From a phage: 64,000 nt of DNA. Every line of letters starts with the position of its first letter. The first letter of the stretch is position 1. The DNA lies in sequence record PX880103.1; one strand, given 5' to 3'. A model generated the notes under the pieces. That model was not told where the DNA came from. It saw only the letters and a program-made list of their open reading frames with translations, and did no database searches. The translations under genes and the position numbers were made by a program. Of the stretch, positions 2,343 through 50,887 are shown one piece after another.

Positions 2343-4322
2343 ATGACTTTATTATCTCCGGGCATTGAGCTCAAAGAAACTACGGTTCAAAGCACCGTGG
2401 TTAATAACTCTACTGGTACAGCAGCTTTGGCCGGTAAATTCCAGTGGGGTCCTGCTTTTCAGATTAAACAGGTTACAAATGAAGTAGATTTAGTTAATAC
2501 TTTTGGTCAACCAACCGCTGAAACTGCTGACTATTTTATGTCTGCGATGAATTTCTTGCAGTACGGAAATGACTTACGAGTAGTTCGTGCTGTTGATAGA
2601 GATACCGCTAAAAACTCATCACCAATCGCCGGTAATATTGAATACACAATTTCTACCCCAGGTAGTAACTATGCGGTTGGAGATAAAATCACGGTCAAAT
2701 ATGTTTCAGATGATATTGAAACTGAAGGTAAAATTACTGAAGTAGACGCAGATGGAAAAATTAAGAAAATTAATATTCCTACTGCAAAAATTATCGCTAA
2801 AGCGAAAGAAGTCGGTGAATATCCAACACTAGGTTCTAACTGGACTGCGGAAATTTCTTCATCTTCCTCTGGTTTAGCTGCAGTAATAACTCTTGGAAAA
2901 ATTATTACTGATTCTGGTATTTTATTAGCTGAAATTGAAAATGCTGAAGCTGCTATGACAGCGGTTGACTTTCAAGCAAATCTTAAAAAATATGGAATTC
3001 CAGGAGTAGTAGCGCTTTATCCAGGAGAATTAGGCGATAAAATTGAAATTGAAATCGTATCTAAAGCTGACTATACAAAAGGAGCTTCTGCATTACTCCC
3101 AATTTATCCAGGTGGTGGTACTCGTGCATCTACTGCCAAGGCAGTGTTTGGGTATGGACCGCAAACTGATTCACAGTACGCTATTATAGTTCGTCGCAAT
3201 GATGCTATTGTTCAAAGCATTGTTCTTTCAACTAAGCGTGGTGAAAAAGATATTTACGATAGTAACATCTATATCGATGACTTTTTCGCAAAAGGTGGCT
3301 CAGAATATATTTTTGCAACTGCACAAAACTGGCCAGAAGGCTTCTCTGGAATTTTAACTCTGTCTGGTGGATTATCATCAAATGCTGAAGTATCAGCAGG
3401 AGATTTGATGGAAGCTTGGGACTTCTTTGCTGACCGTGAATCCGTTGATGTTCAACTGTTTATTGCAGGTTCTTGTGCCGGTGAATCTTTAGAAACAGCA
3501 TCTACTGTCCAAAAACACGTCGTTTCAATTGGGGATGCTCGCCAAGATTGCTTAGTATTGTGCTCTCCTCCACGTGAAACTGTAGTTGGAATTCCTGTAA
3601 CTCGTGCAGTAGATAACTTAGTCAATTGGAGAACCGCAGCAGGTTCATACACTGATAATAACTTTAATATCAGTTCAACCTACGCAGCAATTGATGGTAA
3701 CTACAAGTATCAGTATGACAAATATAATGATGTGAATCGTTGGGTTCCATTAGCAGCTGATATTGCTGGTTTATGCGCAAGAACTGATAACGTTTCTCAT
3801 ACTTGGATGTCTCCAGCTGGTTATAATCGTGGCCAGATTCTTAACGTTATTAAACTTGCTATTGAAACTCGCCAAGCTCAGCGCGACCGTTTATATCAAG
3901 AAGCTATTAACCCGGTAACTGGTACAGGTGGTGATGGTTACGTATTGTATGGTGATAAAACAGCTACTTCTGTTCCTTCTCCATTTGATCGTATTAACGT
4001 TCGTCGTCTGTTTAATATGTTGAAAACGAATATCGGACGTAGTTCAAAATATCGTTTGTTCGAATTAAACAACGCGTTTACTCGTTCATCATTCCGCACA
4101 GAAACTGCCCAGTACTTGCAGGGAATTAAAGCTCTCGGTGGAATTTATGAATATCGTGTAGTTTGCGATACAACAAATAACACTCCGTCAGTAATTGATA
4201 GAAATGAGTTTGTTGCAACATTCTACATCCAACCGGCGCGCAGTATAAATTATATTACTTTGAATTTCGTCGCAACTGCTACCGGCGCAGATTTCGATGA
4301 GTTAACTGGTCTTGCAGGTTAA
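2343..4322 (+). CDS. 18: contractile tail sheath protein gp18
   Basis: 659 aa as in T4 gp18; TATAAATA late promoter upstream; synteny. Confidence 0.95.
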   Translation: MTLLSPGIELKETTVQSTVVNNSTGTAALAGKFQWGPAFQIKQVTNEVDLVNTFGQPTAETADYFMSAMNFLQYGNDLRVVRAVDRDTAKNSSPIAGNIEYTISTPGSNYAVGDKITVKYVSDDIETEGKITEVDADGKIKKINIPTAKIIAKAKEVGEYPTLGSNWTAEISSSSSGLAAVITLGKIITDSGILLAEIENAEAAMTAVDFQANLKKYGIPGVVALYPGELGDKIEIEIVSKADYTKGASALLPIYPGGGTRASTAKAVFGYGPQTDSQYAIIVRRNDAIVQSIVLSTKRGEKDIYDSNIYIDDFFAKGGSEYIFATAQNWPEGFSGILTLSGGLSSNAEVSAGDLMEAWDFFADRESVDVQLFIAGSCAGESLETASTVQKHVVSIGDARQDCLVLCSPPRETVVGIPVTRAVDNLVNWRTAAGSYTDNNFNISSTYAAIDGNYKYQYDKYNDVNRWVPLAADIAGLCARTDNVSHTWMSPAGYNRGQILNVIKLAIETRQAQRDRLYQEAINPVTGTGGDGYVLYGDKTATSVPSPFDRINVRRLFNMLKTNIGRSSKYRLFELNNAFTRSSFRTETAQYLQGIKALGGIYEYRVVCDTTNNTPSVIDRNEFVATFYIQPARSINYITLNFVATATGADFDELTGLAG

Positions 4323-47345: not shown

Positions 47346-47562
47346 ATTGTTTTTCCGTTAAAACAGTAATATCGTAGTAACAGTCAGAAGAAGTTTTAAC
47401 TGTGGAAATTTTATTATCAAAATACTCACGAGTCATTTTATGAGTATAATATTTTTTACCATAAATGATAATAGGCTGTTCTGGTCCTGGAACTTCTAAC
47501 TCGCTTGGGTTAGGAAGTGTAAAAAGAACGGCACCAGAAGTATCTTTAAATCGTAAAATCAT
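47299..47562 (-). CDS. hypothetical protein
   Basis: 87-aa ORF between td and nrdA. Confidence 0.5.
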
Positions 47563-48419
47563 ATTGCCATTTTCCCTTTAATTGCTGGATGCGATTCATA
47601 ATTTTCAAGGATAAAATCTTTCGGTTTCATGTATTCAGTTAACCAGTAAAGCTGTGTTTCGGTGTCACAATTTCCAAACTCTATAGGCCAATCAATTTTA
47701 AGTTCACACAGTTCTTTAGGCTCACGACGTAAAATTTCTTTACATTGCTCAGTATGATTCATATAGATGTGAGTATTACCACCAGAAAATATCAAATCTC
47801 CTGGGATAAGATTACACATCTTAGCCACAATATGCGTCAAGGCAGCATACGAGGCAATGTTGAATGGCAAGCCTAAGAAAACATCTACACTTCTTTGGTA
47901 CCATTGTAAATCAAGATAACCATTACGCACATTAAACTGATAGAACATATGACAGGGCGGTAATGCCATTTGATTGATTTCAGCTGGATTCCATGCTGAA
48001 ACGATTTGACGTCGATCAGTTGGTAATTTTTTAATACGATCAATAGTTTCAACTAATTGATCCACACCACCGAAATCACGCCATTGTTTACCGTATATAG
48101 GACCAAGTTCACCACTATGATATCCTAGGTCTTTAGCCTGGTTTTCATAGTTATCGTCCCAAATAGTTTTACCTTGAATAAGACTACCATGAGTGCGAAG
48201 ACGTAAATCATTAACATTGGTAGAACCGGAAATAAACCATAGAAGCTCAGCAATGCATGCATTCCAAGCGAGCTTCTTAGTTGTTACTGCAGGAAAACCT
48301 TTAGTTAAATCCCAGCGTAATTTAGTACCGAACAAAGCAATTGTTCCTGTGCCTGTTCGGTCATCGGTTTCATAACCATTTTCAAAAATGTCTTTAATTA
48401 AATCTTGGTATTGTTTCAT
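47559..48419 (-). CDS. td: thymidylate synthase, uninterrupted (no intron)
   Basis: 286-aa continuous ORF as spliced T4 Td; active-site context PCH. Confidence 0.95.
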
Positions 48420-48464
48420 TTAGTACCTTATATAAATTATAATACATTTTATGAAGCTAAATAA

Positions 48465-48812
48465 TCAATACGGTTTAGCATCAAATTTTCTCTCAATTTC
48501 AGGTGTGAAATATAATTCTTTACCACGTTTGGAAAAGCGACCAATAATATGATAATTATTCTCATCAAACGTGATATTACCAATATCCATAGCTTTCAAC
48601 CAAATATCGATATTTCTATCAAGCTTTATGTCAAAATTCCAATACAGAGAACTATTACCGAAAATACTACAAGCGGATTCAGTGAAACAACTGCTATAAA
48701 TCTTGTCTTTAGGAACTACTAATTGATAGACACCTTTAATAAACTGAGGACCCTGCCATTTTGGCTGTTTCACGTCTTTTTCTAATAGAATAGGGTAATA
48801 ATTAAAATTCAT
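48465..48812 (-). CDS. hypothetical protein between frd and td
   Basis: 115-aa ORF with no recognisable motif, in a junction where T4 frd and td overlap. Confidence 0.55.
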   Translation of the reverse strand: MNFNYYPILLEKDVKQPKWQGPQFIKGVYQLVVPKDKIYSSCFTESACSIFGNSSLYWNFDIKLDRNIDIWLKAMDIGNITFDENNYHIIGRFSKRGKELYFTPEIERKFDAKPY

Positions 48813-48831
48813 ATTTCCGCCACGCGTTATT

Positions 48832-49658
<827 letters not shown>

Positions 49659-49668
49659 ATTATTTTCC

Positions 49669-49911
49669 TTAAACAGACTTTTTCACAATTTTCCAATCAG
49701 CTTTAAACTGGTCGACGTCAGAATGGTAAATCCAGAATCCTGCGCTTTCTCCGTCTTCATAAAGAGGACATCCATCGCATTCATCTTCCCATCCCATATC
49801 ACGTAAAAGGTGTTCAGCTTTTTCAACAAGTTCAGAATCTTTACCGATGATATTAAAATACCATTTACCTCTAACTTCTGAATCTTTAATGCTCTGACGC
49901 TGTAATCTCAT
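49669..49911 (-). CDS. hypothetical protein (frd.x)
   Basis: 80-aa ORF; early-type promoter upstream. Confidence 0.55.
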   Translation of the reverse strand: MRLQRQSIKDSEVRGKWYFNIIGKDSELVEKAEHLLRDMGWEDECDGCPLYEDGESAGFWIYHSDVDQFKADWKIVKKSV

Positions 49912-49969: not shown

Positions 49970-50197
49970 TTATTTTTGGATTAATCCCATATAAAATTTA
50001 GCATCTTCAGGATACATGCCATCACAATACTCATTGGTCATAAAACTAATAAGGTCTTCAAGAGGACCTTGAACTTCAATTTGAATACTAAAGAATTGGG
50101 TATCTTTAATGTAAGCCATACTCAAAGAAGGATAACGATTGCGGATAACTTCGTAAGTGTATTCAAAATCAACAATATCAATATTAACCTTAGCCAT
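49970..50197 (-). CDS. hypothetical small protein, paralog 1 ([13 protein letters not shown]...)
   Basis: Start moved to ATG 50197 with GAGGAAAA RBS (75 aa); the track's longer version would swallow its own promoter. Confidence 0.55.
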
Positions 50198-50224: not shown

Positions 50225-50256
50225 CAATAGTATCACACTACTACCCTTCTGTAAAC
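50225..50256 (-). promoter_or_regulatory. early-type promoter candidate for small paralog 1
   Basis: GTTTAC -35 and TACTAT-like -10 upstream of ATG 50197. Confidence 0.4.
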
Positions 50257-50615
50257 TACTTTTTGAAAGTTTTTCGCAAAAGTTCAATGATTTCGTCTAC
50301 ATTGTTTTCATCTACAATGCAGTGAATTTTTGTTACGCCAGAAACTAGGTATTCGTCTTCTTCAGAAGTCGGTTCTTTATATTCACGAAAACAATGAAAT
50401 TCGTCTTCACAGACGTTAAAGTAAAAATGCTTTCCATTTGCGCATTCAATGTGTTTTATTACTCTAAATCCATCAACAAAGAAAGCTTCTTTAACTTCAA
50501 ACCATCCGCCATTTTCTTGAATAATTTTAACTATTGCTGAATTAGAACGTGGACGATAATTAATAAATGTATCAATAAGTCTTGGAACAAGTTCATACTT
50601 TTTACCGATATACAT
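50256..50615 (-). CDS. hypothetical protein
   Basis: 119-aa ORF between the two paralogs. Confidence 0.5.
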
Positions 50616-50662: not shown

Positions 50663-50887
50663 CTATTCAATAAATCCTGTGTAAAATTCTACATCTTCAG
50701 CATCCATACCGTCGCAGTATTCATTAACCATAAACTGTTTAAGACGATTTAAAGGACCTTCAATAACAACTGAAACATTACAATTAGGATCATTTAGTGC
50801 GCTTATGATACTAAGTTCAGGATAACGATTACGAATAATTTCTTCAATATATTCAAAATCAACAACATCAATATCAATTTTAGCCAT
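50663..50887 (-). CDS. hypothetical small protein, paralog 2 ([13 protein letters not shown]...)
   Basis: Start at ATG 50887 with GAGGAAAA RBS (74 aa); about 50% identical to the 49970-50197 product. Confidence 0.55.

Follow-up and report, generated by a model that had tools for sequence, protein, structure and literature searches.

Gene td.1 at the frd-td junction of T4-like phages and its most likely loss from phage T4

In phage T4 (NC_000866), the dihydrofolate reductase gene frd and the thymidylate synthase gene td share a 4-bp overlap (ATGA), and no other ORF separates them. In the stretch of phage DNA analysed here (64,000 nucleotides of sequence record PX880103.1, hereafter the window), the two genes are separated by an open reading frame (ORF) of 115 codons. 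The initial annotation, whose statement of a direct overlap in T4 was borne out, described this ORF as an extra one, devoid of recognizable nuclease or other motif, and pointed to gene junctions as typical sites for mobile or accessory ORFs. Is the ORF a genuine gene, was it gained by this phage or lost by T4, and what might its product do?

Identity and coding status of the 115-codon ORF

The ORF listing of the 64-kb window confirmed an ATG-started ORF of 115 codons between frd and td, at exactly 48465..48812 on the minus strand. The gene order is frd - td.1 - td - nrdA.2 - nrdA.1 - nrdA, and the features of the junction are as follows.

48832..49413, minus strand: frd, dihydrofolate reductase, 193 aa, upstream neighbour
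48813..48831, minus strand: frd-td.1 spacer, 19 bp, AATAACGCGTGGCGGAAAT, read from the sequence
48465..48812, minus strand: td.1 coding sequence, 115 aa and stop codon (ORF call), member of PHROG 1928
48439..48468, minus strand: promoter-like site of the td.1-td spacer, TTGATT-N18-TATTAT, with an overlapping TATAAT (consensus scan)
47559..48419, minus strand: td, thymidylate synthase, 286 aa, without intron, downstream neighbour

The spacers measure 19 bp from the frd stop codon to the td.1 ATG and 45 bp from the td.1 stop codon to the td ATG. Ahead of the td.1 ATG, the 19-bp spacer contains a weak Shine-Dalgarno-like sequence (GGCGGA/GGA). The td reading frame is uninterrupted over 286 residues and the gene is thus intronless in the window phage, with neither group I intron nor I-TevI. 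A MotA-box-like TTTAGCTTCA was noticed by eye in the td.1-td spacer, upstream of the -10 element of the promoter-like site. The homologous stretch is labelled 'promoter' in phage Lutter (NC_054924), and the match to the consensus suggests that the site may function as one. T4 is without it, as it is gone along with td.1.

Differences from T4 were also found on the other side of frd. An ORF of 81 aa without Pfam match (49413-49658, minus strand) abuts the frd start and is preceded by a homologue of frd.1 (DUF5417, 49669-49911). T4 has only a 71-bp gap at this place, so that the 81-aa ORF is also accessory relative to T4. Further upstream, two Phage_FRD3 (PF05798) paralogues that are 51% identical to one another (49970-50197 and 50663-50887, both on the minus strand) flank a homologue of frd.2 (50256-50615), whereas T4 has a single frd.3.

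As judged by sequence comparison, the ORF is td.1, an already annotated gene of the function-unknown family PHROG 1928, and is not new. The encoded protein is 98% identical to that of T2H td.1 (ABI48932.1) and equal to it in length, and the genes of both are located alike between frd and td. The name was given in the GenBank records of T2H (AY262132.2) and T6 (AY262134.2), while the record of RB51 lists the gene as RB32ORF229c. The td.1 of T2 and T6 and the window ORF are one gene with homologous spacers, without difference of substance. Many Tequatrovirus genomes match this region with 98-99% identity, the best match being phage teqsoen (99.0% over 2 kb), and the window phage is one more member of that genus. 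PHROG 1928 was matched over the full length (residues 4-111 of 115, E=1.5e-35); as the family is without assigned function, membership is silent on mechanism.

A tblastn search with the 115-aa product retrieved 580 phage records, with one place in each. The identity exceeds 90% in 363 of them, including T2, T2H, T6, RB3, RB18, RB51 and RB68, and is below 60%, down to about 30%, in the remaining 217, which belong to at least four other Tevenvirinae genera. A word-indexed protein search returned only 3 close relatives, and the distant members were reached by an exhaustive HMMER search: among 1.84 billion representative proteins, only 22 td.1-family clusters were found, nearly all of 95-116 aa, with identities of 26-47%. 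No second copy of td.1 was found when the family HMM was run against all six-frame ORFs of the 64-kb window. No mention of td.1, nor of its expression or function, was found in the literature searched (full text; reviews of the T4 mobile elements and genome; the mobE paper that cites AY262132).

Several records carry other names for the td.1 product. It is called 'putative homing endonuclease' in the BASEL phages FriedrichMiescher, WilhelmHis, AugustSocin and AlbertHofmann, and 'putative glucose-1-phosphate adenylyltransferase' in SF2-1, while an apparent second 'putative dihydrofolate reductase' in IsaacDaniel, JLBYU24 and HMD-9 is td.1 (records MZ501066, MZ501113, MZ501052, MZ501047, PQ571308, MW749000, OK272476 and PV287714). 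These names are backed neither by a domain (Pfam, family members included) nor by the fold.

With a G+C content of 36%, chance alone should produce about two open stretches of 115 codons in the 64-kb window, all six frames counted. Length alone is thus weak proof of coding, and it is conservation that settles the matter. When the window is compared with T2H, FriedrichMiescher, teqsoen and NHEP29, the dN/dS ratio of td.1 (Nei-Gojobori) lies between 0.025 and 0.109, similar to that of td in the window/NHEP29 pair (0.066). Because the ratio is low and similar to that of td, td.1 is, by this measure of selection, a functional protein gene. An alignment of 23 sequences contains six invariant residues (Q16, W19, G27, G91, K95 and G97) and four nearly invariant ones (Y29, N79, F93 and F102), all of which are present in the window protein. 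The C-terminal motif I-I-G-R-F-x-K-x-G-x4-F-x-P is conserved in the family. The chance expectation and the weak Shine-Dalgarno sequence are what could be expected of a fortuitous frame in a non-coding frd-td spacer, but we regard such an origin as next to impossible, given that the protein is kept in 580 records to about 30% identity with its length preserved, that dN/dS is 0.03-0.11, that a fold is confidently predicted (see below) and that a PHROG family is matched.

Distribution of td.1 and alleles of the frd-td junction

At every locus examined in sequenced phages, from at least five Tevenvirinae genera, td.1 directly follows frd. Homologues lie directly 3' of frd in CIP9 (Kanagawavirus), KpV477 (Jiaodavirus), Moon (Moonvirus) and S16 (Gelderlandvirus), and adjoin a gene annotated as DHFR in others, for instance the phages CBH8 (Serratia) and EcS1 (Escherichia). 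There is no frd-td.1 spacer in NHEP29, CIP9, KpV477, Moon and S16, where the td.1 start overlaps the frd end. The order in two metagenomic T4-like contigs is DHFR - td.1 - ORF of 116-118 aa - TS. A tandem paralogue of td.1, of 115-119 aa, directly follows td.1 in Kanagawavirus, Moonvirus and Gelderlandvirus.

CIP9 (locus L005), 2817-3176: td.1 tandem paralogue with motifs KKW, HGxY and GRFxKxG
Moon and S16 (loci L007, 2787-3134, and L008, 2809-3159): td.1 tandem paralogues with the same motifs

The tandem paralogues of CIP9 and Moon match PHROG 1928 with E values around 1e-36, and the KpV477 orthologue belongs to PHROG 1928 too. A distant member of the family (P0024, 109 aa) was encountered outside the frd-td context, at 1248-1577 of locus L015 (contig ERZ27260015 k141_230232). 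Its gene sits between those of a TM2/zinc-ribbon protein and an RlaP-family protein, on a T4-like contig that also has a RegB-like gene.

The identity between the window phage and other genera is 32-43% for td.1, 46-49% for Frd and 71-80% for Td. The identity of td.1 falls with distance as do those of its neighbours, which fits vertical descent from a common ancestor. Most likely, td.1 was ancestrally present at the frd-td junction and was lost by T4; both the ancestral presence and the direction of the change are drawn from parsimony across genera.

Within Tequatrovirus, 519 records matched the junction. Td.1 is present in 353 of them. The contiguous junction of the T4 type is found in only 32 (T4 stocks, RB55, RB59, HY03, SG1 and a few others), where the matched place spans 335 bp versus 751 bp in the window. 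An unrelated 68-aa ORF (PHROG 9550) occupies the junction instead of td.1 in about 135 records, such as that of pSs-1; as this last count is approximate, the three add up to 520. The ORF is therefore not extra in this phage, contrary to the initial annotation, since td.1 is the majority state (353 of about 520 Tequatrovirus records), and the frd/td overlap of T4 is a minority state, most likely a derived one. The suggestion that the ORF is accessory stood up better, with three junction alleles in Tequatrovirus (td.1, the 68-aa ORF, or nothing) and a gain in phage NHEP29 that is described below. Its occurrence at the same place in T4 and close relatives had been named as the mark of a core gene. 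The close relatives T2 and T6 do carry td.1 at this junction, but it is missing from T4, and the absence from the 32 T4-type records, from RB69 and from the approximately 135 records with the 68-aa ORF sets td.1 apart from core genes.

On the coding strand of the window, frd ends with GTATATAAATGAAATAACG and td starts with GGTACTAAATGAAACAATACC, while the T4 junction reads GTATATAAATGAAACAATACC. The T4 junction is the window sequence minus 416 bp between two copies of TAAATGAAA.

48830..48838, minus strand: TAAATGAAA, 9-bp direct repeat, upstream copy, spanning the frd stop codon TGA (48834..48832)
48414..48422, minus strand: downstream copy of the 9-bp direct repeat, spanning the td ATG (48419..48417)
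48423..48838, minus strand: 416-bp segment absent from T4, containing the 19-bp spacer, td.1 and the 45-bp spacer, with a 9-bp ambiguity of its boundaries
48838, 48422, 40491, 37496, 25923, 19663 and 18212: minus-strand sites of the repeat in the window

T4 and its closest relatives most likely lost td.1 through a 416-bp deletion between these repeats, from which the well-known ATGA overlap of frd and td would have resulted. RB69 (Mosigvirus) has the same overlap junction as T4 and is without td.1, which calls for an independent loss or for recombinational spread of the deleted allele. In the window, the repeat, which combines a stop codon with ATG-AAA, has seven copies on the minus strand and two on the plus strand. 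Such a microhomology, common at gene boundaries, could mediate gene-precise deletions elsewhere.

The reverse event is indicated in NHEP29 (PQ511150), an Escherichia phage of the genus Mosigvirus. Its frd shares about 98% identity with that of RB69 and only about 61% with that of the window, yet its td.1 (locus L010, 2501-2848) is 89% identical to that of the window at the nucleotide level, and at the amino-acid level it is 93% identical to Tequatrovirus td.1. There are TAAATGAA repeats on either side of the gene, the ATG of which overlaps the frd stop codon. The combination of an RB69-like frd with a window-like td.1 indicates that NHEP29 acquired the gene laterally, presumably by recombination at the TAAATGAA boundary repeats.

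The 68-aa ORF shares the junction with td.1, being tightly packed between frd and td, but its sequence is unrelated. It ranges more widely than td.1, beyond the T4-like phages, as it is also found in Phapecoctavirus genomes with about 43% identity. In CIP9, td.1, its paralogue and the 68-aa ORF stand in a row before td. The frd-td gap thus acts like a small cassette site, of which different lineages kept different subsets.

pSs-1 (Shigella phage, locus L009), 1666-1872: 68-aa ORF (PHROG 9550)
CIP9 (locus L005), 3173-3379: 68-aa ORF (PHROG 9550)

A link between the loss of td.1 and co-conversion by I-TevI was considered and rejected, because td.1 and the td intron with I-TevI are found together in 79 records, including T6, RB3 and PST. 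The polymorphisms of td.1 and of the intron are thus independent.

Many seg and mob genes of T4 occupy gene junctions (PMC2988022). Like them, td.1 lies between conserved genes and varies among close relatives, so that the insertion between frd and td of an autonomous mobile ORF, such as a free-standing homing endonuclease gene, or the remnant of one, has to be weighed. The patchy presence in Tequatrovirus, the lateral acquisition by NHEP29, the short direct repeats flanking the site and the product name given in the four BASEL phages would all agree with such an element. Nevertheless, every testable feature that defines a homing endonuclease failed, and this origin is very improbable. Unlike the seg and mob genes, td.1 has no nuclease motif, is half the size and is kept at one locus across genera. 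In Pfam, the ORF and the 22 family members show no module of a nuclease (GIY-YIG, HNH, LAGLIDADG, PD-(D/E)xK or another) or of DNA binding, NCBIfam likewise returned nothing, and no nuclease is among the structural neighbours. Q, W, G and K make up the invariant residues, among which there is no acidic/histidine catalytic set, and the 115 residues amount to about half of a Seg or Mob protein. Each of the 580 records has the gene at a single place, which is after frd across at least five genera wherever examined; purifying selection on it is strong, and in 79 records the I-TevI intron is present as well. The gain by NHEP29 is explained by recombination at the boundary repeats. The proposal of a mobile ORF is thus not upheld in the sense of an autonomous element, which nothing marks at this fixed place with its single copy per genome. 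The movement of td.1 consists of gene-precise loss and gain at boundary microhomology, that is, passive mobility.

An annotated homing endonuclease gene was observed in the Klebsiella phage KpV477 (locus L006, 3683-4414), on the opposite strand, right after td and before nrdA. True homing endonuclease genes thus target this cluster in other genera.

Predicted fold and possible roles of Td.1

The td.1 product is a mildly basic protein of 13.7 kDa with a pI of 8.5, and pI values of 8-9 prevail in the family. An AlphaFold2 model was generated from an 18-sequence alignment, with a pLDDT of 84.7 and a pTM of 0.77. DSSP assigns predicted strands to residues 6-12, 27-34, 38-40, 48-50 and 62-64, a helix to residues 68-76, and further strands to residues 80-82, 86-96 and 99-104. 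The model describes a single-domain, mostly β protein, and the predicted order of elements (β1β2β3-helix-β4β5) resembles that of an OB-type barrel. The comparison was made with the OB-fold domains that bind single-stranded nucleic acids (SSB/RPA, S1, cold-shock, HIN and RecO N-terminal domains). Q16 and W19 map to the β1-β2 loop, G27 and Y29 to β2, and the G91-R-F93-x-K95-x-G97 motif to the β4-β5 hairpin. From these secondary-structure positions, the conserved residues would be placed on one face of the protein.

No significant domain match to td.1 was found in Pfam, NCBIfam, PADLOC or a sequence profile search of the PDB, and the 22 family members gave no significant match in Pfam either. The lack of a recognizable nuclease or other motif that was reported in the initial annotation therefore holds. 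The known OB families (SSB, S1, CSD, tRNA_anti and others) were not significantly matched at the sequence level in Pfam or among PDB sequences. The best matches of the domain searches, HlyIII and TagH (E=0.04 for both), were judged spurious. Td.1 appears to be an orphan fold that is confined to T4-like phages and is without structural relative.

Taken together, the best explanation of the locus, which we hold with good confidence, is that td.1 is an ancient and dispensable gene and that T4 underwent a deletion; the product is taken, as a best guess, to be a small binding protein. Td.1 is an accessory gene of the early/middle nucleotide-precursor cluster of T-even-type phages. Its location inside the frd-td-nrd cluster and the overlap of its start with the frd stop codon in several genera make co-expression likely, and td.1 would be co-transcribed or co-expressed with frd and td. 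The protein itself would be a dispensable binding module and not an enzyme.

As to what is bound, the leading guess, a tentative one, is that basic and aromatic loops of Td.1 bind single-stranded nucleic acid, either ssDNA or RNA. A host protein or a defence system is about equally likely as the target. Td.1 may accordingly act in host takeover or counter-defence by binding a host protein, as do the products of many of the small early genes that vary among T-even phages; this is possible, if somewhat doubtful. It would suit a gene that is present, absent or replaced by an unrelated ORF at one site, that has a tandem paralogue in several genera, that was transferred laterally and whose orphan fold is limited to T4-like phages. 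The divergence between genera, faster for td.1 (32-43% identity) than for Frd (46-49%) and Td (71-80%), points in the same direction. However, the very low dN/dS within Tequatrovirus is unlike that of an arms-race gene, and no PADLOC defence model or known family was matched. An adaptor or accessory subunit of the thymidylate cycle that binds Frd and/or Td, for instance by coupling them in a dNTP-synthesising complex or by tethering them to DNA/gp32, is less likely still. In at least five genera, as well as in T4-like contigs from metagenomes, the gene is situated between frd and td, its overlap with the frd end in NHEP29, CIP9, KpV477, Moon and S16 suggests translational coupling, and purifying selection is as strong on td.1 as on td. 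Yet T4-like genomes are generally collinear, so that the kept position is a weak sign of functional linkage. Moreover, T4, RB69 and about one-third of the Tequatrovirus records keep frd and td without td.1, and the distant family member P0024 adjoins an RlaP-family gene, away from DHFR and TS genes. A more far-reaching proposal combines some of these elements: Td.1 and the tandem paralogues might form a family of small barrels, specific to T4-like phages, that physically connects Frd/Td with nucleic acid or the replication machinery. We consider it a long shot; if it were true, T4 would bear, in its frd/td overlap, the mark of a lost third partner.

Significance of the locus

The discovery value of the ORF is small, as hundreds of GenBank genomes already contain it as 'td.1' or 'hypothetical protein'. 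As a well-conserved orphan with a confident model, Td.1 is nonetheless a reasonable, low-priority target for characterization. The T4 reference is atypical at frd-td, and comparisons with T4 only will therefore keep flagging td.1 as 'extra'. The frd-td gap of Tequatrovirus is a small cassette site, for which three alleles exist and at which microhomology between stop and start codons most likely mediates gene-precise gain and loss.
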